The position numbers were made by a program, and so were the translations under genes. The notes beneath the pieces are model-generated. The model worked only from the letters and a program-made list of their open reading frames with translations. It did not search any database and had not been told where the DNA came from. A DNA stretch of 63,396 nt from Podarcis gaigeae (Eukaryota), in the NCBI GenBank assembly GCA_964106915.2, contig OZ066928.1; one strand, 5' to 3'. This document shows, in pieces, positions 2,527 through 63,396 of the stretch (within the stretch, counting starts at the first letter, position 1; each line of letters opens with the position of its first letter).

Positions 2527-5500
2527 CACTAGAGTCCTGGCTGCCATTTTTCCTTACAGTAATGCATGTGAGTAATTCACATTCTCGTAAGGAAACTAAG
2601 GTGTCTAATTTACAAAGGTAAAATTACTTCCTTGCTCCACCCACCATGGGGAGGTGGACCTCAGAAGGTTGCCAGAAGGAATGTGGTTCCCAGCCTCTGA
2701 GATAGGCCTTTAATAGAAACCAGCAGGGCTCTCCTTATGTTAACTAAGGCGGTGTCAGCTGATATGAATGCCAGCTACGCAATCATGGCAACAGTAAGAA
2801 AGAAGTGAAGGTAAAGGAGAGGGTTGGCCCATCCCACTGTTTAAGTGATTAGTGTTTCCATTAATGGAGAACAACAGTGCCTTTTCACACGAGAGTCGCT
2901 CACACTCCTAGTTAGTCCATTCATTCTCTCAGACCTCTCATGAAAATAGTTTTCCTAAGTTACGTTCCAGCTTTGAGAATTTGCTGAAATTATTATTTAT
3001 CGAGATGATTTATGAGCTTCCTAGGCCTCCTAACTTTTCTGTGGAAGTCTTTTTCTTTCTTTGTTTTCAAACAGCTCCTGGCATGCATATGTCAAAAGCA
3101 GCAGTTGCCCCCTTGGAAAAGGTCATATTTTCTGCTTGGAAATAGGCATTCAGTGTTGGATAATGACACTGCTGGATGAGCCGGTCTTTGGCGTAAAGAT
3201 ACTTCCTTTTAATTTCTGCGCTCAGGAACAGAAGTGCGTCGCTTGTGTTTGGCTTAGATGAAAGTGGATAGAACTAATTTTAGATTTCCAACCCCCCTCT
3301 TTGTTAGTTTTAACAACCTTTATTCTAATGGCTGGCCTGCTGAGCAGAGAATCAAAGCCCCTTCAAGGGGCAGGAAATCAATAACCAACAAGGAAAGTCT
3401 AAAGAAAATGAATGCATCCAGTGTGAGCAACTGACAGAGGAATTACTTTTTTTTTTGGTATAAGAAGGGCAATAATAGAATGCACATACAAATATAATAG
3501 AAACATAAAAAAAACACCAGGAAGGGGGGTTCGGAGAGACTGAGGCTCAAATATACCTAACTCCTATTTATACTTCAAAGCTCCTGGCACTTTTGTTTTT
3601 ACATTTTAAATGGGATTTGAAGATGGGTTTCAGCCGAAATATTTGTGCCTGTAAAGTGCTTCTAAACTAGCTGGCTGTATTAGAAACATGTATTTAATGT
3701 TTCAAAGGGGGAGGAAAATCCTCCTCTCTCAACTTCATGGATTAGGGTTGCCACTTTCACTATGTTATTGTTATTGTGATTGTTATTATTATTATTACCA
3801 CCACTACTACCTCCTAAATTTATAATCATTTAGCCAGGCTTTTGCAGGTGTGTACTTCCAGTTTTAGTTCTTATCCCGCCCCCCGTGCCTGTTGCTGCTA
3901 CATTTTCTTCCGTATACTGTTAGGCTGGTCTTGTATTATGTGTACTGCTTCGAGACTTTGGAGAAGAGGTGGTGTGGAAAGGATTCAAATAATATTAATT
4001 TTATAAAGTATGTAACATTTCTTAAGTATAGCACATGGTTTCAGATTGTAAACTGGGAGGCCTATCCCTGATGAAAAAGCCCAACTCCAATGGGCAAAGA
4101 AATTAGCCCATTGCATTCATTCATAAAATGAATTTGAATTTGAATTTCTAGCTTGAATTTGAATTTGAATTTCCAGCTTGGATAGAAACAATTTAGGAAA
4201 GGGAGGAGCCAAAAAGCTTGGATGTGTGAGGTCATAAGAAAGAACCAATGGGCACATCTAGTCTTGCATCCTATTTTGAAAGTGGCCAGCAGATGCATAT
4301 GGAAAGCCCACAAGCAGGTTTGGGTTTAAATCCTGTTGTTCTCCTGCCAGAGGGAGAGAGAAAGAGTTTGTTTTGGGGAATGGACAAACACACACTCACA
4401 CACCTACCTTCGAGCCAGAGTGATTTAGAGGCTAGAGGAGCAGGGAGAGCTTGTTTGAAATCTCCACTCAGCCCATGAAGCTCGCTGGAAGATCTTTGGC
4501 CATATTCCATTATGTTGAGCGAGACCTAAACTGCAGCCTAATTTAGTGGGCTACTTCTCTGGTGCAAAATCAGAGGTTTTTGAAATAGTCCATTTGTTGG
4601 CAGAACCTATTCCCTGGTGTCCCTGATGTAAATGCTGAAGGTGCCCATATCCCAAAGGTCTGGAGCAGACATAACCAAAATAGTGGCCTCCAGATGTTGT
4701 TTCATTGCAAGTCACAGTACCAGCCAGCATGACCATTGTTCAGGGGTGATCCGAATAAGAGTTCAACATGTGGATGCCTCAACATTGCCTTCTTCTGGTC
4801 TATGGGGCCTACATTTCACCCCTTCTGAGCTTGCTGAGATGCCTCTTGAGAGGGGCATAATACTTTCTGTCCCACTTCAAAGACTAGATGGAAGTAAAGC
4901 ATCAAGCTATGCATTGGCACACCCATTTTTGCCCAACTTCAGTCAGAGGCAATTAGGAGGAGAGCCATGTGTTTCCAAGACATTTAATAGCGCATTCCTA
5001 TAGTGCTTTCAAACATATTTTAAAATGCCTTTCCCTCATAAATAATTTACTTAAGTTTTTTGAAAGGTTAGCACTTGCTATAAAAGACGCATCTGGCTGT
5101 AAGGGTGGTTTTATGGTTAGACATTAGATAAGGAAAAGTATGTTTGAATATTGGACATTGGGGTATTTCTCCACATTATGGCTATGTCTTTTTTTCTTTT
5201 TTCTTTTTAAAAGTTCTGTTGAATCTACCGGGGCAGAAAAATAGAGCTATGACTCAGAGGCATGATAAGCCAACAAATGGTTCCGTTAACTTTTTTTATA
5301 GCAGCTTTGAATTCTCAGCAAAACTAAAAAGGTTTAACATATCAAAAGGGAGAAGACCTGTGTATAAGGTACATCAAATGAATTCTGTACTTACAGGAGT
5401 AGTACGACGCTCGTTATCTGATTGGCTTGGGGATATTTAATATTTAAAATATTGAGAGTGCAATTCTATGCATGCCATACATTCAGTGGGTCTCACTCCA

Positions 5501-7079
5501 AAGTAAGTGTGTTTAGGACTGCAATCTAAGCTTTGTTTCAAAAGAAGGAGATCCTGGAAAACAAATTGTCTTAACAATTTTGTATGATGTCGCATCAGGA
5601 GCTCTCTGGGGCGTTGTAGTCAATTTTAAATAGCTTCACCAAACTTCTTCAATGCTCATTGGAGCATCGGAAAAGGGGAGCCCAGGCCAGACAGCAGCAG
5701 AAACAGCCTCAGTTGATGCAGCTCTGATCACTGAGGAGCATCATATATTCCACAGCAGGGCCACAAATATCAAGTTGCAGTGGTTGGTGCCCTTTGGGGC
5801 TGGTAAGGTGAAAGGCAGAGAGTCCAACAGAAGGTGGACGAAGAGCCAACGACAGGAGGGACCACTATGTCCGGTTTCAGCCATTTCTTCCTCCCTGCTG
5901 AGTTCTACAAGGGGAAGCACTGAGACTAAAGAGAAGGAAGATGACTGTCAGTGGCTTTACCTGGCCTGCCTGTAAGTAAGAAGGTGGGCAGGAAGTGGCA
6001 GACTATAACCAGACTGAGGTGGTTTGGCCAGTGCCAGTTGCTAATGGCGCTTTAAAAACTGGGCTTGGAAGCTAGTTTTTGTGCAGGGCTGGCAAGTTAA
6101 TCTCTTTCCACAGCTCATGCTGCTTGTAGGATTTCACTGCTGACTCCTTCTCCTCCTTCGGTCCATCCTCTGTCCTTTTCCCAGCTCACTTTGGTTACTC
6201 AGCTCCGCTGCATTCGCAGGCTGAGCCCTGACCACCACATCTATGTTTTTCTCTCATACTCCATCTTAGTCTAGTGGATCCTGTTGACATGGATGAGGAC
6301 CAAGGGGCTGATGGTATTTGAGGTGGCTGAGGCTATATAGGAAAGTAGTCATATTTGTTTGTTTGTTTGTTTGCTTGCTTGCTTAGGGTATGGGGAGTGA
6401 ATTATTTATATGAATCTGTGAAGAAATGGAAATAATATGCCTGGCAAAAGGTTTAAATTAAATGAAGAACAAGCAGGACTGCAGCTGAAGTATTCATTAT
6501 TGTTACTGAGTATTGTGTTTATAGTTATTTATTTGTAATATTTATTCTAGCGAAGTAACAGTGCAATGCATTTAATAATTTCATATTAGGTGCCCTTTTG
6601 AGAATTAATCTTTTAATGCTGTTTCTTCAGATGGTTGTGACAATGTAAACTGTGCATGGTTTGTATGAATTATTAAAAATTAATGAAGGAAAAATTAAAA
6701 ATAAAGAAAAAAGATTAATATAGCACTTAATAATAAAAAACCCTTTAAGCGGTTTACATAAAATTATATAAAATATTCATACAGATATAATCAACAGACC
6801 TAAAAAAAAGAGTAGATTTAAGAAAACTAACACAATATAGATAAAACAAACCATTTAAAAAACTAGTGTACATAATAAAATTACAGGTCTAAGTTGGTTT
6901 TCCTAAACCAGAAAGATTTTTAGCTGGAATCAGAAGCACTACAACCAAGGGAACTGGCTCTTATTAATAGGCTGGGAGTGTCAGAGAATAGATAATGCCA
7001 CACAATCAGTTGAGAATAAATCAGAACCTGATAGTGATAATAGGATCCTAACTCTTACTGACATCCTCAAGCCTCCACC

Positions 7080-10624: not shown

Positions 10625-11879
10625 TCTTATAAAAGGTTCCTGCGATCAACAAGTAATTTACTAATCAGAGTCCCTAGGATAGAGGATAGGGTGGAAACCT
10701 GCCCAAATCAGTAGAGATTGCCAAATTGTCTGGCATTAATTCATAAGTAGCAAGTGTCAAAAATGAGATAGCTACCAGTATTTTTTATTTTTTTTAACTT
10801 AACGGAAAATATATTGGCTCCCTCATTTATCACCTTTTGTAGCAAACATACTTTGGAATGTGTCATATCTCATTGACATCCAGAGATTCAATGCTTTCCC
10901 TTCTCATCTAGATAACTGCCAAGCCCACAAAGTTTATAGGGAGGCTGCTGAGTTAATGTTGCTGGGTGATAATCCACTTCAGTTTCAGAAACATGAAGTA
11001 CTGCTGAGATATATTTCCAGTTGGTTTATTCTCAGCACTCAGGGGGATAGGATACTATTTCAGTTTCTCTAATGAAGGCCAGAAAATGAAAGGCAGAGCA
11101 TCAGGTTAAATTATGCCTAAATGAAGGGCTAGACCCCCAGAGGAAATCAAGCTTCTGCGGGACAGTATCCCTCCATTAATCCTACAAAATGCTACATCTA
11201 ATGTTAATTCTTTAAAGCTGAACTGTTGAAGGATCTGCAGATCCACCTAGTGCTTTAAACAGTGATCATTTCAGCATTAACATTTCATGCTCATAGGGAG
11301 TTTTTGCTACTCAAGCAGTTGCATTGGTGCAATTTAATAGTATGCATCATGCACAATGCAAGTGGTTGGCCTGGCAGGACGTGAGCCTTGATGTGTTTTG
11401 TATATACTATCACTTTGCTACCCCTTTTCTTTTGTGGTCCATTGGCAGTATGTTGCCATTGGGATGCAATCCTTTGCAGTATCTAATAATGACAACTTCA
11501 TTGCTGAAGCTCTCTCCTACTAAGGTAGGTATATGATGTTGCCTCAGCAAATGACTGAAGCTGTGTCCTGCTGAGGTAGAAAGATGTTGTTCCAGCAGGG
11601 AGCCGAAGCAACTGAAACATTGTGGGCTAACGTGACCTGTACTGTGACTGGCTCTACCGCCCTAAAGGAGCTAGTTGGGTTGTTAAAAGACAGTTAACCC
11701 AGTTAATTTCTGTTGCACCAAGAATGATTTGTGTGCTCCCTCTTCCTGTTGTATCTCTTGTACACCTTAATTTAATACGTCCTGATTTGCTAATCCACAG
11801 TTTCTCATGATGTCCAAATCAGCTGCAATCTCTATGAACCAGGATACCAAAATATAGTTTGATTCTAGCCTGGTTTGTA

Positions 11880-17791: not shown

Positions 17792-17907
17792 TTCACGACC
17801 AGGAAGACCCCCCAAGCGCTCTCTGGGGGTTGCAATACAAGAGAACACGCGCCTACTGCCCCACGGAGTACCAGGCCTCTTATCACCAGGACTTATCTCC
17901 CCAACAG
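17792..17907 (+). CDS. DACH2: DACH2 internal coding exon (116 bp) after the Dachbox-N/SKI domain; (S)SRPGRPPKRSLGVAIQENTRLLPHGVPGLLSPGLISPT(G)
   Basis: Polypyrimidine tract and AG (ttttcacttttgtttcaacag) end at 17791; GT donor at 17908. The translation matches the recalled vertebrate DACH2 segment SSRPGRPPKRSLGVLQENARLL...PGLLSPGLITPTG better than DACH1 (SSRPGRPPKRTQSV). Phase-2 start, phase-1 end. Confidence 0.95.
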
Positions 17908-26663: not shown

Positions 26664-27436
26664 AGAGAGAGGAGATAAGGGGTGAAAATGGTATAATTCC
26701 GAGAGGGGGTATACGACAACTCATATTTTATTTATACACAGCTCAATTCTAACAATGCCTACTCAGAAGTAAGTCCGATTGAATTCAGTGAGGCTTACTC
26801 CCAGGTAAGTGGGGTTAGGATCGCCAGCCTTATTCAGTTGTCGGCATCTGTATAGTGCTTTCTAGTCAGTGAACTCAAAGCAGCTTGTCGTTTAAATTAA
26901 TGGCATGCTATCTCATAGATGGGAATCGAAAAGGGAAAAAAATAAATGTGTGGAACGATTATGAGGAAAAAGGAACAAAGTGAAGTCTCAGTACCTAAAG
27001 AATGATGCATCATTGTGGTGACAGCCCACGTGAATAGGTGAGGAGCCCAATGGCAGTTGGTCATGTCACACCCAGGCCAATGGAGGGGGCTCACTGTCCG
27101 TTCTTTGTCCATGATGTAATCATCTCAATGGTTCTTCACACAAGTGGAATAGCTGCTGTGGTTGGCAGTTCTGGGAGGGTGGGAGCAAAACAGCCGCTGG
27201 TCCCAGCTAAACACATAGTCTAGGTGCTGCTATTTCACTTGTAACCAGGTGGAGAGGGGAAGCCGAATGCCATGCTACTAGAGCAAGCCTTGCTGTCTCA
27301 GCTGCCCCTCTGATGTGGCCAGGTTGAAAGGCTGCTGGTGGAGGGAGGCAGTTCTCACTTTGAAGAACCTTTCTGCTATTAATGGTGGGCTTTTAAGGAC
27401 TTGTCCTCATGCCTGTAATGTTCATAGTGATGTAGT

Positions 27437-27600
27437 TACAGATAGGTAGCCGTGTTGGTCTGCCATAGTCAGAACAAAAAAATTCCTTCCAGTAGCACTT
27501 TAAAGACCAACTAAGTTAGTTCTTGGTATGAGCTTTCGTGTGCATGCACACTTCTTCAGATACCAACTACCAACTAGAATTGAGCTGTGTATCTGACTAC
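27437..27600 (-). mobile_element. Penelope-like element pseudo-LTR mini-insertion with a short inverted segment
   Basis: 14-bp direct repeat catagtgatgtagt at 27423-27436 and 27601-27614; PLE-type end ggtagccgtgttggtc; gtatctga near 27588-27596 is the inverse of tcagatac at 27556-27563. Confidence 0.8.
27523..27566 (-). ncRNA. Minimal type I hammerhead ribozyme (Penelope-type)
   Basis: Minus-strand RNA reads UUGGUAU-CUGAAGA-A-GUGUG(CAUG)CACAC-GAAA-GC-UC^AUACCAA. It has the intact core CUGANGA/GAAA/UH, a 7-bp stem I, a 5-bp stem II and palindromic AGCU in place of stem III. Confidence 0.8.
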
Positions 27601-29119
27601 CATAGTGATGTAGTCAGGGGAGGGAAAGGAATCAGGCATCTGCAGTGGCTGAGTGATTTACACTTGCAGTGGATCCTAAGCCTAGGATTTAAGGGGGTTT
27701 CAGCAAGCCAAGGGAGGTAACTGCAGGGAAACCAACCAGACCAGCAAAGAACTATCTTAACCAAAGATATTCATAGGTCATGTGATACTCTCTGACCCAT
27801 TAACATACTTCAAGTTTAGACTTGCCACAGCCTTGTCCTCTTACCCCAGCTTAACACAAGCTCACCGTGACAGTTTCTGATGAAGGATGATGGTGGTGGG
27901 GGTAGGAATCCAACAAGATCTGGAAGACACTACATTGAGGATAGAGGAAAGTTTCAGAAAGGTGAAAAAGGAGGCTGATAGGTTTCAGCTGCTGCACAAC
28001 AGAACCCAGTGGAAGAGGCCTTTGCTCCTGGTTCAACCAGGAGGGTGTGTCTCTCAAAGCCCCCCATTTCCACTAAACACTTGTTAATCCCATGGCTCTG
28101 AGAAGCAAAGGTTGCTGTTGTTGACGTGGGCCAGCCATTGCTCTGAAAGAGCTGGTGTACCTGAAACAGTAATCGTGGCTTCCCACTCTATTATTAAATT
28201 AACTGCATAGGGATTGCTCCCCCTCCCCATTTCCTCCTGTGAGTTGATGCATAAATGACATAATTTACCCTCCAATAAATCTAACATCAGATCAGGCCAT
28301 GGCGCAGTGTACACATACCCAGCAGTCCCATGACAGATTATTTTTGATTGCTTCAGGAGTTTACAACAGCTTGAAACCATTCAAATTTAAAGACATCATT
28401 GAAATTTTACAGTGTTCCTAACTCATGCAACAAGCAGACATAGGCCAGCCAGAGGTTTTCTGGAACAGTAGGAGCTGTGGTGTCATTCAGGAGAAGGCGT
28501 CTGGATCTGTGAGTGTCAACAATTCCAGATTCTCCTCTAGCAAACCTCAAATTATGTAGTTGGAATACAGTATTCAAATGGGATCTATAAACAGTATGTA
28601 CTTACTGCTCAGAACCACTCTCAGTAGAATAACATTAATAGGGTATCAAAGTCTTACGTTCCAGCTATGCTTTTTCAGCCTGGAGTGGCAAAGTGGCCAA
28701 CTGCAGGGCATTGAGTGTATAGAGCAGGTCTTGAATAGTAGAATAGCTTACAAGTGGGAACTGCAGCAAACTGCTGCCATATATTAATTTATTTAACAAA
28801 ATTTATATACCGGGTGATTGCAAAACAGCAAGCTCTATGCTGTTTACCACAATATAAAATAAAACATTAAAATTACCAGTAAAAAAATAGTTCAACCAGG
28901 TATTTAAAACTATTAAAAAGAAAATTAAAATCAACACTAGCTAAAAAAAAGAGAAATAAAACACCTGTAGCTTCTATATGTCTGGGCAGGCATTCTTAAG
29001 CCAAAACATTTAAGCAGGGGCCACATACTGGTGGTATTTCTGAATCTGTATATTGGCTTTGACACAAAGAGTTCTTACTAGAGCTGTGTGCAAGTGGCTT
29101 CCCAGAATTCTCCACCCTA

Positions 29120-33178: not shown

Positions 33179-34919
33179 AAAGATGCCAGGCGAGCGTCCC
33201 TGGAGAGAGCATTCCATAAGCAGGGAGCCACCGCAGAAAAGGCTGTTGGTAGTTTATTTATTGACTACTGCATCCATACTCTGACTTTCCTTTGTGGACC
33301 TCAAGGTGGTATACATGGCTCCCTCATGTCCTCATGATGGCTTAGGCCGAGAGCATGTCTTGGGGTCACTGAGAATGCTTCATGACTGAGTGAGCCCTGG
33401 AAGCACCAGAGACCTGGTGCTGCCCTGACCTTTTGGACTTTATATTCCATCATTCCCAGTCCTATCTTGAAGGCACAGGGCTGATAGAAACTGCACTACA
33501 CTGTACTGACTCTCAGTGTAGTGATGACTGCCACCTAGTATGGCTTTAAAGGGGAATTATACAAAGTCATAGGAATAAATCTGTCAATGGCTGCTAGTCA
33601 TGATAGCCAAATACTACCTCTACAATCACTGGCAGCATGCTCCTGAATTCCAGTCTCTGGGTAACAGAAGTGGGCAACTGCTGCAGCTTGTGTCCTCCTT
33701 GCAGGCCTCCCTTATTGATCTGGAACAGAATCATAGAATGAAGGACTAGATGGGGCTTTAGGCTGATCATTTAAGATGTTTTCTCAAAAACTGCAGAACC
33801 AAAGGGTTTGCAGCCTTGCTCCAGGGTTGAGGTGTGCTACACACTTCATCAGGTACTCCAACTGGCTTGACCACTTAGGAACATTCATGGAACTGGCAGA
33901 TCCACGACAGAGCTTTTGTACAGCTCCACTTTTCCCAACTTGGTGCCCTCCAGATGTTTGGGGCTGGGGCTCTCACCAGCCCCAGCCAATAGACTGAGAT
34001 GATGGGAGTTGTAGTTGTACAACATCTGGAAAGTCACAGGTTCTCCACCCCCAATTTATTTATTTATTGAAACCAGCTGGTTATATTTTTGCCCTGAAGG
34101 TCAGCAGTGACAGTGCTGTCATTAGGCAGATTAAGGCAACTGCCTCAGGCATCTGACTTTGGGTGTTGTGAAAGGCAGCAAGTTCTTAGTTACTAAGTAT
34201 ATAAATTTGTTGTATTTTAACTGCCAGGGAGTGGGAGGGCTGCTTGTGGAAGTTTCTACCTGATGTGCCCAAATAATCTGGTTGGCCTAAAGTACAAAAC
34301 ACCTTTGACTTTGGGAGGGAAGACTTCTCAGACAGCAAAATGTGGTAGGCCTCCCTTTCCCTTTATCCCTCCAGATGTGGTGAGCATCACCATCCCTCTC
34401 CAATGCCCATGCTCAGTGGTGGAACTGGCAGGGCAAAAAGCCAGGAAACAAAAATCGCTGGGAGCCGAAGCCACTGAAAAGTGGAACCAACTAATACTAC
34501 CTTTGTTCCCCATCTTCCTCCCTGCTGAGTTCCACAAGGGCAACACAGAGGCCAAGGAGGCCAAGGATGTTGGCAGGCAAGTGGGGGCCAGAAGAGGGCA
34601 GACTGAGGTTTGTGGTGTTTGCCTCACTGGAGAAGCCTCCACTGGGTGCCAACTACACCCAATTTGATGGGAATTGTAATCCAAAACATCTGGAGGCAGA
34701 AATCTGGGGAAGGCTGGGCTCTGCCCCAAAGGCTACTTTGAGAGACAGTGAAACTTGTTTGCCCCCCTCACACCAACACAGCCACACCAACAGAGTACCC
34801 CCCCCATTTGTAAACTTATTCTTAATGTGAGGATTACCTGAGTGTTTGTTTTCTCCAAAAGCCATAATGTAATCTCAGACCTAATACTCTGACAACCGTG
34901 CACTAATTAAAACTACAAT

Positions 34920-36402: not shown

Positions 36403-37714
36403 TTTATAATTTTTTATTGGTTTTTTCAACACAGATTTAAAAACAAAACAAGACACAATACATAAACAAACAAAACATATAAACATGTATAATTTCAAAC
36501 CTCATTTTCATAAACCTTACTTCCCAGACTTCCCCTTACCTCCCCTTTTCTGCATCCCTATTTTGAGATTTTTTCAACAACTCCTCACACCAATTGTCTA
36601 ATTACTTATTTTCTTTTTTAGCTTCTTCTCATACTTAATCAATTACAGCTATAATTCAATATTTTCTTTTCCCTCGACATTTTAGCACTCTTCAATTTTA
36701 CAACAGTTCTTAAGATATACTTTAAATTTCTTCCAATCTTCTTCCACCGTCTCTTTTTCTTGGTCACGGATTCTGCCGGTCATCTCCGCAAGTCCCATAT
36801 AGTCAATCACCTTCGTCTGCCATTCTTCCAATGTGGGTAGTTCTTGTGTCTTCCAATACTTTGCTAAAAGAATCCTTGCTGCTGTGGTGGCATACATAAA
36901 AAACGTCCTGTCCTTCTTAGACACCAGTTGGCCGACTATGCCCAGGAGAAATGCCTCTGGTTTCTTATGAAAAGTACATTTAAGCACCTTCTTAATTTCG
37001 TTATAAATCATTTCCCAGAAGGCCTTAATCCTCGGGCAAGTCCACCAGAGGTGGTAGAAGGTACCTTCAGTCGCATTACATTTCCAACATTTATTATTGG
37101 GCAGATGATAGATTTTTGCAAGCTTGACTGGGGTCATGTACCACCTGTAAATCATTTTCATAATATTTTCTCTTAAGGCATTACATGCCGTAAATTTTAT
37201 GCCGGTGGTCCATAACTGTTCCCAGTCAGCAAACATAATATCATGACCAATGTCTTGTGCCCACTTAATCAAAGCTGATTTAACTGTCTCATCTAGTGTA
37301 TTCCATTTCAACAGCAGGTTATACATTCTTGACAAATTCTTAGTATTGGGTTCTAACAGTTCTGTTTCTAATTTTGACCTCTCCACCTGGAAGCCAATTT
37401 TCCTGTCTTGTTTGAACACTTCCATTATTTGATAATAATGAAGCCAATCTCGTACCTTAGACTTCATTTTCTCAAAATTCTGTAATTTGATTTTTCCACT
37501 CTCTTGCTCCAATATTTCACAATATTTTGGCCATTTCGATTCCATATTAAGTTTTTTCACCTCCTTAGCTTCCATTGGTGACAACCACCTAGGGGTTTTA
37601 TTTTCCAACAAATCTTTATATCGAATCCAAACATTATATAGTGCTTTCCTGACAATATGTTTTTTAAATCCTTTATGAGTTTTTACCTTGTCATACCATA
37701 TATATGCATGCCAA
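36403..37714 (-). mobile_element. 5'-truncated L1-clade LINE
   Basis: TSD ttaagaactactt at 36390-36402 and 37715-37727; AATAAA and A-rich tail on the - strand; ORF2 C-terminus present. Confidence 0.92.
36682..37713 (-). CDS. L1 ORF2 C-terminal fragment with CCHC zinc knuckle (no RT or EN domain, no native start)
   Basis: Motif CWKCNATEGTFYHLWWTC. The frame stays open upstream of the track ORF to the truncation point (WHAYIWYDKVKTHKGF...). Confidence 0.85.
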   Translation of the reverse strand, partial: WHAYIWYDKVKTHKGFKKHIVRKALYNVWIRYKDLLENKTPRWLSPMEAKEVKKLNMESKWPKYCEILEQESGKIKLQNFEKMKSKVRDWLHYYQIMEVFKQDRKIGFQVERSKLETELLEPNTKNLSRMYNLLLKWNTLDETVKSALIKWAQDIGHDIMFADWEQLWTTGIKFTACNALRENIMKMIYRWYMTPVKLAKIYHLPNNKCWKCNATEGTFYHLWWTCPRIKAFWEMIYNEIKKVLKCTFHKKPEAFLLGIVGQLVSKKDRTFFMYATTAARILLAKYWKTQELPTLEEWQTKVIDYMGLAEMTGRIRDQEKETVEEDWKKFKVYLKNCCKIEEC

Positions 37715-38139
37715 TTAAGAACTACTTCTTAAGGCCAGCACCAGAGCTACTCTCTTTTTATCCAACCAGCATTAGAGGATTGTTGAGGCCTTTTCCGTGG
37801 CAGTGCCTGGATTGTGGAAGTTGATGCCCTAGGATACCCTCACCCCCACCCCTAGATTAACAGCTAAGGTTGTCTGTTTCAGCAGGCTTTTGATCTCAGA
37901 TGGTTGCTGTGCTTTTTAAATGCCTTCCCGTGAATGATCAATGCTGCTTTCGGTGTTTTATCAAACGATGGCTTCCGGTGACATTTTTATTGGTTGCTTT
38001 AATCAGTTAGCCATTTTGTGTATATTGTATGGAAAAGTAGGATATAAATATAGTAAAACAAACAAAATTATGTTTAAAAGTGCTTATTTTGCATAATTTA
38101 TTCTGGGTTGTGGTTTTTGGTGTTGTTTTTTTTAAAAAA

Positions 38140-44845: not shown

Positions 44846-46631
44846 TTGTTGTTGTTGTTTAGTCGTTTAGTCATGTCCGACTCTTCGTGACCCCATGGAC
44901 CAGAGAACGCCAGGCACCTCTGTCCTCCACTGCCTCCCGCAGTTTGGTCAAACTCATGCTGGTAATCTCAAAAACACTATCCAACCATCTCGTCCTCTGC
45001 CGTCCCCTTCTCCTTGTGCCCTCCATCTTTCCCAACATCAGGGTCTTCTCCAGGGAGTCTTCTCTTCTCATGAGGTGGCCAAAGTACTGGAGCCTCAGCT
45101 TCACAATCTGTCCTTCCAGTGAGCACTCAGGGTTGATTTCCTTCAGTATGGAGAGGTTTGATCTTCTTGCAGTCCATGGGACTCTCAAGAGTCTCCTCCA
45201 GCACCATAATTCAAAAGCATCAATTCTTCGGCGATCAGCCTTCTTTATGGTCCAGCTCTCACTTCCATACATCACTACTGGGAAAACCATAGCTTTAACT
45301 ATACGAACCTTTGTTGGCAAGGTGATGTCTCTACTTCTCAAGATGCTGTCTAGGCCTGTCATTGCCCTTCTCCCAAGAAGCAGGCGTCTTTTAATTTCGT
45401 GGCTGCTGTCACCATCTGCAGTGATCATTGAGCCCAAGAAAGTAAAATCTCTCACTACCTCCATTTCTTCCCCTTCTATTTGCCAGGAGGTGATGGGACC
45501 AGTGGCCATGATCTTCGTTTTTTTGATGTTGAACTTCAGACCATATTTTGCACTCTCCTCTTTCACCCTCATTAAAAGGTTCTTTAATTCCTCCTCACTT
45601 TCTGCCATCAAGGTTGTGTCATCTGCATATCTGAGGTTGTTGATATTTCTTCCGGCAATCTTAATTCCGGCTAGGGATTCATCCAGCCCAGCCTTTCGCA
45701 TGATGAATTCTGCATATAAGTTAAATAAGCAGGGAGACAAAATACAGCCTTGTCGTACTCCTTTCCCAATTTTGAACCAATCAGTTGTTCCATATCCAGT
45801 TCTAACTGTAGCTTCTTGTCCCACATAGAGATTTCTCAGGAGACAGATGAGGTGATCTGGCACTCCCATTTCTTTAAGAACTTGCCATAGTTTGCCGTGG
45901 TCGACACAGTCAAAGGCTTTTGCATAGTCAATGAAGCAGAAGCAGATGTCTTTCTGGAACTCTCTAGCTTTCTCCATAATCCAGCGGATGTTTGCAATTT
46001 GGTCTCTGGTTCCTCTGCCTCTTCTAAATCCAGCTTGCACTTCTGGGAGTTCTCGGTCCACATACTGCTTGAGCCTTCCTTGTAGAATTTTAAGCATAAC
46101 CTTGCTAGCGTGTGAAATGAGTGCAATTGTGCGGTAGTTGGAGCATTCTTTGGCACTGCCCTTCTTTGGGATTGGGATGTAGACTGAACTTCTCCAATCT
46201 TCTGGCCACTGCTGAGTTTTCCAAACTTGCTGGCATATTGAGTGTAACACCTTAACAGCATCATCTTTTAAAATTTTAAATAGTTCAGCTGGAATACCAT
46301 CACTTCCACTGGCCTTGTTATTTGCAGTGCTTTCTAAGGCCCATTTGACTTCACTTTCCAGGATGTCTGGCTCAAGGTCAGCAACCACACTACCTGGGGT
46401 ATACGGGACATCCATTTCTTTCTGGTATAATTCCTCTGTGTATTCTTGCCACCTCTTCTTGATGTCTTCTGCTTCTGTTAGGTCCTTTCCACTTTTGTCC
46501 TTTATTATGGAAATCTTTGTACAAAATGTTCCTTTCATATCTCCAATTTTCTTGAACAGATCTCTGGTTCTTCCCATTCTATTGCTTTCCTCTATTTCTT
46601 TGCATTGCTCGTTTAAGAAGGTCTTCTTGTC
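44846..46631 (-). mobile_element. 5'-truncated BovB (RTE-clade) LINE
   Basis: (CAA)n tail; TSD ttgtcacccttg at 44834-44845 and 46632-46643; BovB-type ORF. Confidence 0.96.
44871..46631 (-). CDS. BovB reverse transcriptase (complete RT domain; AP-endonuclease missing)
   Basis: Motifs NYRTIALISH, FIDYAKAFD, GVRQGCILSP, LRYADD and FTFLGS. The frame is open from the truncation point (DKKTFLNEQCKEIEESNRMGRTRDLF) to ...VTKSRT*. Confidence 0.93.
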   Translation of the reverse strand, partial: DKKTFLNEQCKEIEESNRMGRTRDLFKKIGDMKGTFCTKISIIKDKSGKDLTEAEDIKKRWQEYTEELYQKEMDVPYTPGSVVADLEPDILESEVKWALESTANNKASGSDGIPAELFKILKDDAVKVLHSICQQVWKTQQWPEDWRSSVYIPIPKKGSAKECSNYRTIALISHASKVMLKILQGRLKQYVDRELPEVQAGFRRGRGTRDQIANIRWIMEKAREFQKDICFCFIDYAKAFDCVDHGKLWQVLKEMGVPDHLICLLRNLYVGQEATVRTGYGTTDWFKIGKGVRQGCILSPCLFNLYAEFIMRKAGLDESLAGIKIAGRNINNLRYADDTTLMAESEEELKNLLMRVKEESAKYGLKFNIKKTKIMATGPITSWQIEGEEMEVVRDFTFLGSMITADGDSSHEIKRRLLLGRRAMTGLDSILRSRDITLPTKVRIVKAMVFPVVMYGSESWTIKKADRRRIDAFELWCWRRLLRVPWTARRSNLSILKEINPECSLEGQIVKLRLQYFGHLMRREDSLEKTLMLGKMEGTRRRGRQRTRWLDSVFEITSMSLTKLREAVEDRGAWRSLVHGVTKSRT

Positions 46632-46890
46632 TTGTCACCCTTGGAGAAATCTGCAAACAGGAAGATGAGGAGAAAACTAGTTGACTCTGCCTGTTGTTGG
46701 CTCTGACTCCAACCACTATGGGGCTCCCTGCCTCCTATCCTACCAGTTCCAATGGGCACCAGCCACCACTGGTGGTTAGAGTATCTCACTTGGACTGGGG
46801 AAACCAAGGCACAATCTTTTGTCAGCTATGAAGCTCCCTGAGTGACCTCGGGGCAGTTCCTATATTTAATCCTAACTACAGGATTGTTAG

Positions 46891-58326: not shown

Positions 58327-59961
58327 TAGGAATGGGCAACTTGAACACCTCTAGATGCTGCTGGAGTTGCACTTCTGTCATACCTGACTGTGCTGACTGG
58401 GCTTGCTGGGAGCTAGTGTCCAACAAAGTTCTGGAACAGGTCCAGCTCTACAATCAGGCAGAGGGACACAGTCAAAGCCTGAAGCCTCTTCTCAGCTAGG
58501 CTGCTGCCCTCAGGTACAGTTGAAGGATGCTGTCCCATTACCAGTTCCAACACTGATCTGTTCAGCTCCTGCATAGTGAGTGGATGGAAGGGGGCGCCAT
58601 CCTGTCCTTAGCTCAGCCAGCAACTATTTATTGCCCAGCCCTGACCAAGAGAGCTACAAGTTCCCTATCCCTGCTCTAACCAGTACACCACACATGTGAC
58701 ATATTTACTTGGGAGTAAGCCCCACTGTGTTCAGTGGGGTTTACTGCAATTGGAGAGTACATAGGCTTGCAGTTTTTGTTCCTTAGCACCACAGAAACCT
58801 AAGTTCAATGAGTACTTTTATTCTTCGTCTTCAGTTAATGCATTTACCAGGACAGTTGCCACTTTTAAAAAAGAGGTTCAATTATTATAGGACATGGAGC
58901 ACTCTGCTGATTTTCTGGATAGCCAGTCTTTCTTCCCTCTCCCCCTCCTCTCTCTTCAACCCCATCGCCCAAAATCCTTTCTCTGCCTTTTTACATTCAT
59001 CTTTGTGATCCTGAGAACCGAAAGGGGTCAGGCAGTCAACTATACAGAATAAGATAAAGGTCGCTGGAGTGGAGCTCACTAAAAGTATTAAGTATTACAA
59101 TCCTGACAAATCATTCCCATAGCCTAGACTCTAAAAGGAACGGAAAATGTCATGAAATCAATCAACCATCATAAGCGGGTCTCTGAAAAGCAAGCAAGGG
59201 AAAATACAATCTAACCCGGCCTTTTCCTTTCCAACTCTGATTTTGTCATTTCCTCTCAATCATATAACTTAAAAAGATTTTCAGAGTATGAGACGGATGC
59301 ATCTTGTTTACGTTTCATCCATCGTTGATAATATTGTTATTTTACTGATTTTAACATTTTACATGGTGGAATAATATGCCAAGATACATACAAATAGTAA
59401 TACACATACATTTTTACTAGGTTTATTTCAGATTCTGGGACTGAAGTTCCCCTGAGAAGGGCGAGGCCAGATTCCAATCAGCTCCTGATCAGTGCTGGGG
59501 CAATATCATAGGCTGCCTATTAGCTGGACTTAGCCTGGCATCTATCACTTCCACCCTGGCATGTTCAGTCCAAGATCCTAAAACCATCTCTGCCATTTTA
59601 GGACTTATACATAAAGCAGAATGAATTGGTTGAACCAACGAGGGAGCAGTCAGTGAAAACTGCAAGTGGTGGGTAACATTTTTTTTAATACTGCCCCCAC
59701 ATTGCAGTTAACAACTCCAAGCAAAACAGCCAGGATGGAATTGGAACATCAAAGTTTGTATCATAGAGAAGCATTAAAAAAGAAGACACCCACCCCATAC
59801 AGTCATAAGTGATGCAGGCCATTCTGGCACCCCAGAACTCAACCTACTCATTCCCCCTTCTTTCTGATCCATCTGCAAACTAGGTTTCAGTCTCCTCACT
59901 AGTGCTAGGCTGAGCATTTGAAAGACTAAAGGATTAACCTGGATTTTGCTTGATTGAAAGA

Positions 59962-60105: not shown

Positions 60106-60320
60106 TGTGTGCAGCGAGAGGGTAAATTTCACCTTTGTCCATTAGTTTCTATACACACCCACACACCTCCATCCAGGCAAGAAGCTTTATCAGAATTAAG
60201 GGAGAAATTTTGAGCCAGGCGAAAACACTCAAGGAAAATACAAAGTAAGGCCAGTGAATGGTAAGACATCAGGAGCAGGAGTGTGGCCTTGGGGAAGGTG
60301 CCTAGACCCAGGTAGAAAGG

Positions 60321-61780
60321 TCATAGAATCATAGAGTTGGAAGAGACCACAAGGGCCATCGAGTCCAACCCCCTGCCAAGCAGGAAACACCATCAGAGCA
60401 CTCCTGACATATGGTTGTCAAGCCTCTGCTTAAAGACCTCCAAAGAAGGAGACTCCACCACACTCCTTGGCAGCAAATTCCACTGTCAAACAGCTCTTAC
60501 TGTCAGGAAGTTCTTCTTAATGTTTAGGTGGAATCTTCTTTCTTGTAGTTTGGATCCATTGCTCCGTGTCCGCTTCTCTGGAGCAGCAGAAAACAACCTT
60601 TCTCCCTCCTCTATGTGGCATCCTTTTATATATTTGAACATGGCTATCATATCACCCCTTAACCTCCTCTTCTCCAGGCTAAACATGCCCAGCTCCCTTA
60701 GCCGTTCCTCATAAGGTATCGTTTCCAGGCCTTTGACCATTTTGGTTGCCCTCCTCTGGACACGTTCCAGTTTGTCAGTGTCCTTCTTGAACTGTGGTGC
60801 CCAGAACTGGACACAGTACTCCAGGTGAGGTCTGACCAGAATACAGTGGCACTATTACAGTGGTGCCCCGCAAGACGAATGCCTCGCAAGACAAAAAACC
60901 CGCTAGACGAAAGGGTTTTCCGTTTTTCAATGCGCTTCGCAAGACGAATTTCCCTATGGGCTTGCTTCGCAAGACAAAAACGTCTTGCGAGTCTTGCGAT
61001 TTTTTTCGCTCCCCCCTTTTTCTAAGCCACTAAGCCGCTAATAGCCTTTTAGCCGCTAAGCCGCTAAGCCTTTAATAGCCGCTAAACCGCTAAAAGCGCT
61101 AAGCCGCTAATAGGGTTGCTTCGCAAGACGAAAAAACCGCTAGACGAAGAGACTCACGGAACGGATTATTTTCGTCTTGCGAGGCACCACTGTGCTTCCC
61201 TTGATCTAGATGCTATACTCCTATTGATGCAGCCCAGAATTGCATTGGCTTTTTTAGCTGCCGCGTCACACTGTTGGCTCATGTCAAGTTTGTGGTCAAC
61301 CAAGACTCCTAGATCCTTTTCACATGTACTGCTCTCAAGCCAGGTGTCACCCATCTTGTATTTGGGCCTCTCATATTTTTTTTTGCCCAAGTGCAATACT
61401 TTACATTTCTCCCTGTTAAAATTCATCTTGTTTGTTTTGGCCCAGTTCTCTAATCTGTCAAGGTCGTTTTGAAGTGTGATCCTGTCCTCTGGGGTGTTAG
61501 CCACCCCTCCCGGTTTGGTGTCATTTGCAAATTTGATCAGGATGCCCTTGAGTCCATCATCCAAGTCATTGATAAAGATGTTGAATAAGACAGAACCCTG
61601 TGGCACCCCACTAGTCACTCTTCTCCAGGATGAAGAGGAACCATTGATGAGCACCCTTTGGGTTCAGTCAGTCAGCCAGTTACAAATCCACTGAGTGGTA
61701 GCATAGTCAAGACCGCATTTTACCAGCTTCTTTACAAGAATATCATGGGGCACCTTGTCAAATGCCTTGCTGAAATCAAG
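60321..61780 (-). mobile_element. 5'-truncated, inactive CR1 LINE interrupted by a MITE
   Basis: (ATTCTATG)-type tail; RT motifs [12 protein letters not shown] and SGVPQGSVL; KFANDTK (catalytic D to N); C-terminal [12 protein letters not shown]-like motif; possible TSD aaggtc. Confidence 0.93.
60858..61192. mobile_element. Young Tc1/mariner-pogo-type MITE nested in CR1
   Basis: 22-bp TIR with one mismatch (cagtggtgccccgcaagacgaa / ttcgtcttgcgaggcaccactg); TA on the left, TG on the right; CR1 is continuous when the MITE is removed. Confidence 0.92.
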
Positions 61781-63322: not shown

Positions 63323-63396
63323 GTCTAACAGCAGCTGCCATGGCAGAGGCGATGAAATTGCAGAAGATGAAGCTGATGGCCATGAATAGCCTTCAT
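63323..63396 (+). CDS. DACH2: Next DACH2 coding exon, cut off by the window end; (G)LTAAAMAEAMKLQKMKLMAMNSLH
   Basis: Acceptor tttttctctctatttctgtggctag ends at 63322. The phase-1 junction G|GT joins the 17792-17907 exon in frame. AAAMAEAMKLQKMKLMAMN matches recalled DACH2; DACH1 has a poly-Ala run and AEAMKVKKIKLEAM here. Confidence 0.95.

Follow-up and report, generated by a model that had tools for sequence, protein, structure and literature searches.

A truncated, probably Penelope-like insertion with a minimal hammerhead motif in a lizard DACH2 intron and a 5′ junction apparently patched from local DNA

Here we describe a short insertion in a DACH2 intron of the lizard Podarcis gaigeae, studied within a window of 63,396 nucleotides (assembly GCA_964106915.2, contig OZ066928.1; all positions count from the first letter of this window). 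The insertion is probably a dead, 5′-truncated copy of an endonuclease-bearing Penelope-like element (PLE) with a 14-bp target-site duplication (TSD); at its 5′ end, the link to the chromosome was probably made by microhomology-driven repair, in which 37 bases were copied from local DNA. The features of the inserted stretch and of its borders are as follows.

27423..27436, plus strand: left copy of the TSD, an exact repeat that is single at the empty site of run X9; its 3′ end is the presumed primer of reverse transcription
27437..27563, minus strand: element body, the final 127 bases of a likely Penelope-like element that is present in very many copies (pseudo-LTR end and tail), delimited by family depth and by the end of the family match
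27437..27475, minus strand: probable optional 3′ tail of about 39 bases, placed by the ends of other copies near 27476 or 27429–27439
27526..27563, minus strand: minimal type I hammerhead motif (4-bp stem I, CUGAAGA, bulged A, 5-bp stem II with palindromic loop, GAAA, AGCU)
27601..27614, plus strand: right copy of the TSD, from the exact repeat and the empty site

The two copies of the 14-bp direct repeat are identical and enclose 164 bases, as originally predicted. A direct repeat alone is not rare, since the window contains 10 exact 14-mer pairs at spacings of 50–500 bp. Contigs of 4 public runs (24 are listed) were compared over 26700–27900; X1 is organism A, and perhaps the source sample itself, X3 is organism B and X9 is organism E. 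An empty orthologous site, for which the original prediction had proposed a search, is present in X9, where one contig (record 29) runs straight from 27422 into 27601 and extends for hundreds of bases in both directions. This contig lacks 178 bases and has the 14-mer once, so that the 14-bp repeat is a true TSD. The insertion is common to organisms A and B and is absent in organism E; it is thus young and not conserved. The right junction, including the filler described below, is bridged in X1 and X3 (records 8 and 16), which rules out an assembly artefact, and the one 14-mer copy at the empty site rules out recombination between chance 14-mers. In X1, X3 and X7 no more than 21–22 bases reach across the left junction, below the 31-base rule, and X7 has no cover over 27602–27683, that is, at the right junction.

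The inserted stretch is composed of two parts. Summed contig depth over 27438–27560 reaches 0.8–4.4 million in the four runs, compared with 7–27 in the unique flanks. Summed depth is not a copy number, as overlapping contigs may inflate it by an estimated factor of up to about 31, and the values mean a repeat family of thousands to about 10^5 copies. The match to this family ends at 27563, past which the other copies continue with different letters in all four runs, letters that the family copies share. The original prediction had taken all 164 bases as the element; given the match end and the differing continuation, 127 of them are element and the remaining 37, which form a junction filler, are private to this copy.

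At the other end of the element, long loose ends at 27476 are prominent in three of the four runs. Among the joints listed between a neighbouring repeat and other copies (10 of 62), 6 lie at 27429–27439, 3 at 27476 and 1 at 27500, nine of the ten thereby making up two classes of 3′ end about 40 nt apart. Depth is lower over the tail, and an A-run at 27476–27482 blurs the boundary. By analogy, the two classes would fit the optional 30–40 bp tail of Penelope elements, if thinly.

Stop codons interrupt all three sense frames of the element. By eye, none of the open reading frames of at least 120 aa in the window combines a reverse transcriptase with a GIY-YIG domain, and pattern scans of metagenome contigs gave 0 matches. 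Penelope membership is likely and rests on non-coding features. A severely truncated PLE was one of the two identities originally offered, and it is supported by the turtle-like minimal hammerhead, the PAc-like distance of the hammerhead from the 3′ end, the true TSD, the very high copy number and the two apparent 3′-end classes. This copy carries no canonical inverted 5′-truncated partner, only an 8-base overlap match, and in this it differs from endonuclease-bearing PLEs; such a partner is described, in the part of the literature used here, as ‘often’ present in PLE insertions, and hence is not defining.

In other respects the copy resembles endonuclease-bearing PLEs as they are portrayed in the sections of the sources drawn on here, with a probable optional tail, a TSD and strong 5′ truncation (PMC11167929; PMC3846280; Craig 2021, PMC8557442), its duplication being 14 bp long compared with 8–10 bp in Adineta Penelopes (PMC3846280). 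For the PAc element of Anolis, reverse transcription is reported to start 111–118 nt from the start of stem II, at two tail-defining sites, with uncut RNA as the main substrate (Frangieh 2024, PMC11167929). Here stem II starts 115 nt from the 3′ end, and the copy spans the cut site, in keeping with an uncut template. By eye, the element has no sequence likeness to the RNA stretch given in the supplement of that work, and the agreement at 115 nt therefore crosses families and may be partly chance.

Cervera and De la Pena (2014, PMC4209133) found minimal hammerheads within Penelope-like elements and, by the thousand, as isolated copies, in reptiles as elsewhere; their occurrence in truncated Penelope ends is described as massive and widespread. 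Compared by eye, a motif of the turtle Chrysemys picta bellii in that work has the same CUGAAGA core, bulged A, G-C-closed 5-bp helix II and 4-bp helix I; in the turtle, too, a GC palindrome replaces helix III, and the motifs are mostly single and spread through the genome. The two motifs differ (again by eye) by compensatory changes at one pair of helix I and one of helix II, by the cleavage triplet (CUC here, CUU in the turtle) and by loop II, which is a 4-nt palindrome here and 7 nt long in the turtle. Three extra stem I pairs, which this copy owes to its filler, do not occur in the turtle motif as published (PMC4209133), and the supplement table of the same work does not mark the turtle motif as linked to a full PLE.

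The hammerhead core is complete on the minus strand, as had been claimed, with CUGAAGA at 27559–27553, stem II at 27551–27538, GAAA and a predicted cut between 27530 and 27529. The palindrome AGCU at 27534–27531, which stands in place of helix III, is self-complementary. Two further claims about the motif need rewording. The 14-nt palindrome described as stem II is exact, but its fold is a 5-bp stem capped by a 4-nt loop; and the 7-bp stem I exists in this copy but is not a trait of the family, which has 4 bp, the other 3 having been added by the filler. An extra base, A27552, precedes helix II, in which the pair G27551–C27538 has a probability of 0.96–0.99, and both stems are predicted to form in context. 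The features given for minimal type I hammerheads of metazoan PLEs are a core of CUGANGA, GAAA and NUH in type I order, an additional base ahead of helix II, a G10.1–C11.1 pair, a palindrome at 15.2–16.2 where helix III is missing, and a helix I of 4–5 bp (PMC4209133); the family part of the motif shows all of them. Across the window the motif is the sole match to a hammerhead descriptor on either strand, and the strict descriptor gave 0 matches in 100 shuffled windows. An Rfam scan, by contrast, returned no hammerhead match at E up to 10; we infer that the Rfam models need helix III.

Among the variants listed for the family, none falls within the stem II palindrome (27538–27551), for which a 14-bp RNA–RNA pairing of −25.2 kcal/mol is predicted. 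Elsewhere in the window there is no second full hammerhead unit. The minus strand at 33831–33856 holds the 5′ half of a second minimal-hammerhead-like motif, with a CUGAUGA core and a 5-bp stem II, but no GAAA. It is alike to the element in 22 of 26 bases (E of 0.001 in a 500-base local search and 0.11 in the window) and is perhaps an old Penelope remnant.

The filler can be broken down into three pieces, listed here with the donor of the longest and with the inverted stub of the original prediction.

27564..27600, no strand: copy-specific 37-base junction filler at the element 5′ end, absent from both the empty site and the family continuation
27560..27576, plus strand: piece 1, in which stem I is lengthened by 3 bases and two overlapping 8-mers repeat element 27506–27513, the matches being short and individually weak
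27575..27592, plus strand: piece 2, an inverted copy of host 26734–26751 in 18 of 18 bases (BLAST E 7.7e-4 in the window)
27593..27600, plus strand: piece 3, an 8-base inverted copy of target flank 27610–27617, a fold-back of the far end
27589..27596, plus strand: inverted stub, 8 bases complementary to the element 5′ end, across the join of pieces 2 and 3
26734..26751, plus strand: donor of the 18-base piece, 685 bp upstream of the break, taking in 5 bases of flank and the diverged terminus of a short host repeat that is palindromic

In piece 1, the two overlapping copies of element 27506–27513 span 27562–27576, and the first 3 bases of the filler extend stem I. For piece 2, an 18-base match within 1 kb arose in none of 20,000 shuffles of the filler (maximum 17) and, over the whole window, in none of 2,000. 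Among real 37-mers of the window, 3 of 1,628 have a match of at least 18 bases within 1 kb, so that local repeats, too, can produce matches of this length. Piece 2 also carries three letters at which the donor departs from the usual end of its repeat family. The donor is identical in X3, and X9, where the insertion is missing, has the donor too, altered by one or more changes; copying thus ran from donor to insert. The host repeat to which the donor belongs (26739–26825) is a short imperfect palindrome with a summed depth of up to 79,000. It has two weaker copies in the window, at 5481–5518 and 58705–58745, and other copies of it bear joints to the Penelope-like element at several places.

An 8-base match equal to that of the fold-back piece arises in 80 of 200,000 shuffles. 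The far chromosome end is predicted to form a 3-bp terminal hairpin of −0.4 kcal/mol, which leaves one base of the fold-back unexplained. A second possible source of the same 8-mer, element 27466–27473, would need a letter that is missing from more than 99% of the family depth. The first 6 bases of the duplication (27423–27428) are identical to the element tail at 27464–27469, which could reflect a brief annealing that explains the extra fold-back base, or chance.

Local 8-mers tile all 37 bases of the filler, as they do in 7 of 20,000 shuffles; 8-mers of the element and its 30-nt flanks cover 25 of the 37, which no shuffle in 20,000 matches. Successive pieces overlap by 1–4 bases. The inverted stub had been read as the end of a second ribozyme copy. 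That reading does not hold, as the match is 8 bases long and every letter of it is also explained by two host-derived pieces; the stub adds no letters of its own, yet it may have been an annealing point.

These observations can be arranged into a course of events, reconstructed from a single insertion; what we observe is the TSD with its empty site, the family part of 127 bases, the hammerhead motif and the matches of the filler to local DNA. The element protein would have made staggered nicks 14 bases apart. Reverse transcription would have started at the end of the RNA tail, 115 nt from stem II, on RNA that was presumably uncut because the copy runs through the cut site, and would have stopped at the outer edge of stem I. 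Short template switches would then have added element sequence, and host sequence from 685 bp upstream, to the end of the cDNA. The far chromosome end would have folded back on its 3-bp hairpin; the 8 bases that it copied must have come from the minus strand, as the plus-strand template straddles the first nick. The two ends would have met through a 4-base overlap.

Judged by analogy, polymerase theta would be the likeliest repair enzyme, with the element's own reverse transcriptase as the alternative. Templated insertions made by polymerase theta are described as a patchwork of pieces of less than 25 bp from near the break (PMC12426944), and the filler shares with insertions made by microhomology-mediated end joining both the short local patchwork and the overlaps of 1–4 bases (PMC12426944). 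Polymerase theta is also reported to be involved in truncated R2 products. For LINE-1 insertions, small-hairpin inverted duplications with the target-site duplication kept have been reported (bioRxiv 10.1101/2024.12.14.628481), as has resection of both ends, and R2 insertions show snap-back junctions (PMC11371274). The small-hairpin fold-back found here, with its duplication kept, is like these LINE-1 and R2 junctions in what their cited accounts relate (bioRxiv 10.1101/2024.12.14.628481; PMC11371274). Unlike the precedents for templated insertion, the present case is a germ-line insertion of Penelope type, and one of its donors lies 685 bp from the break.

The filler may instead have been made by the Penelope reverse transcriptase, a reading that we hold to be a good deal less probable. 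The second nicked strand would have been primed at the CUGA core, as an aborted inverted partner, and synthesis would have jumped from there to local DNA. This account departs from our preferred one in just two points, the enzyme and the reading of the stub as real, and our confidences in the two are not exclusive. The stub matches the antisense end of the element for 8 bases, or 10 when the next two letters of the family are counted; PAc nicks and extends both strands; and template jumps and self-priming have been proposed for Penelope junctions. However, every letter of the stub is also accounted for by two host pieces, canonical partners begin at fixed internal initiation sites and not in the core, and resection with patchwork copying is a signature of host repair.

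The original prediction offered, as its second identity, a non-autonomous, retrozyme-like family. In the sections of the sources used here, non-LTR retrozymes are tandem arrays of at least 2 hammerhead units, with canonical type I hammerheads that have helix III and loop contacts (PMC7229834; bioRxiv 10.64898/2026.07.22.740005). The present insertion is like them in being short, non-coding and low in GC (41%), in its type I hammerhead, in its long duplication and in its likely derivation from a PLE end; it is unlike them in being a single unit with a minimal hammerhead and no tandem array (PMC7229834; bioRxiv 10.64898/2026.07.22.740005). The features that were tested thus speak against a retrozyme-like family.

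A wider version, in which the 127-base unit is a discrete non-autonomous family (SINE-like, or a retrozyme monomer) with a fixed 5′ end at the hammerhead, moved in trans by a Penelope protein, is improbable. The 5′ end of the copy does coincide exactly with the outer edge of stem I; in all four runs, loose ends at 27563 rank with the best supported and lose agreement after about 8 letters; 8 of the 12 short-gap joints listed (12 of 58) start at 27563–27566; and reptile retrozyme families are reported to average 176 bp and to have monomer derivatives. But the contig data are biased, in that copies reaching past 27563 pile up and only ends within about 10 bases are visible, and because of this ascertainment bias we do not take the many loose ends at 27563 to prove that 5′ ends cluster there. 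The family also runs on past 27563 with shared letters, no tandem is present here and the hammerhead is of the minimal PLE type rather than the canonical retrozyme type. The same 8 of 12 listed short-gap joints of other copies run from 27563–27566 to 27476–27523, in every case 3′ of the predicted cut at 27529.

The hammerhead could also shape Penelope insertions by its structure and not by cleavage, a proposal that we consider a long shot. Reverse transcription would stop at stem I, the fold-back of stem I would serve for self-priming, and the stem II palindrome would pair two RNAs for a two-ended insertion; here, self-priming would have extended 3 bases before slipping. The 5′ end lies exactly at stem I, a 3-base extension is expected 1 in 64 times by chance, one other joint matches through 27566 and the 14-bp RNA duplex of the palindrome is predicted. 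Against the proposal, an exact fold-back joint at stem I is absent among the 15 best joints. Palindromic four-base loops make up 1 of 13, counted by eye among 44 published motifs (PMC4209133). If true, a structural role would explain head-to-head Penelope junctions and why barely cutting ribozymes are kept.

Two features place the insertion with respect to its host gene.

17792..17907, plus strand: DACH2 exon upstream of the host intron, from splice sites and from named matches, which are to dachshund homolog 2 and among which squamate sequences rank best
63323..63396, plus strand: next DACH-like exon, cut by the window end, from an acceptor site and matching phase

A search of a protein atlas gave nothing for the DACH2 exon. 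The predicted orientation is borne out by the exons, which flank the site on the plus strand with matching phase, so that the motif is antisense within an intron. The accompanying suggestion, that the lone copy could cut antisense transcripts, is unlikely to be right, given the inactivity of single minimal hammerheads, the need of PAc for protein and a disfavoured dimer. In the published experiments that we draw on, a single minimal hammerhead did not cleave in vitro and multimers cleaved weakly (PMC4209133), and cleavage by the PAc hammerhead needed the protein of the element (Frangieh 2024, PMC11167929). For the family part, a double-hammerhead dimer is predicted at −11.1 kcal/mol, whereas two monomers come to −13.6 and a dimer paired through the stem II palindrome to −30.6; all dimer energies given here are nearest-neighbour estimates that leave out tertiary contacts.

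That this copy is an active ribozyme cutting antisense DACH2 transcripts, helped by its longer stem I and kept for a regulatory role, can be all but dismissed: the core is intact, the copy is common to organisms A and B and predicted pair probabilities in stem I rise from 0.64–0.78 in the family part to 0.86–1.0 in this copy, with host flanks as well as without, but helix III is still missing, the precedents of the single minimal hammerhead and of PAc would by analogy argue for inactivity, the predicted double-hammerhead dimer (−22.7 kcal/mol) is again less stable than two monomers (−25.4), the predicted dimer through the stem II palindrome (−42.4) leaves helix III unformed, and the copy is missing from organism E. 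By folding models and by analogy, the hammerhead is likely just carried along, and as a lone copy it would have little activity or none.

The window contains other retroelement remains. A 587-aa open frame on the minus strand at 44871–46634 encodes a LINE reverse transcriptase, which we take to be RTE/BovB-like. Five related repeats of 290–370 bp lie at 11875, 19049, 32886, 43014 and 46891, one of which adjoins this frame. Fragments of other LINE ORFs, presumably L1/Tx1-like and CR1-like, are found on the minus strand at 36682–37728 and 60316–61663; the latter includes short internal direct repeats at 60883–61131.

The motif and the type of element are already published, and the insertion as such is ordinary. 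A literature search of partial coverage turned up no account of a host-templated patchwork at Penelope 5′ junctions, nor one of this lizard element family, which may well be catalogued. For the reading of genomic hammerheads, the case is a caution that long perfect stems in single copies can be repair products. The single copy matters little in itself, but its junction records, base by base, how both chromosome ends were remodelled while the duplication was kept. This suggests that Penelope insertions pass through a double-strand-break-like state that is finished by host repair, as has been proposed for LINE-1 and R2. With thousands of copies and with empty sites in relatives, this lineage would offer a large natural data set on how Penelope 5′ ends are joined and on whether they cluster at the ribozyme.
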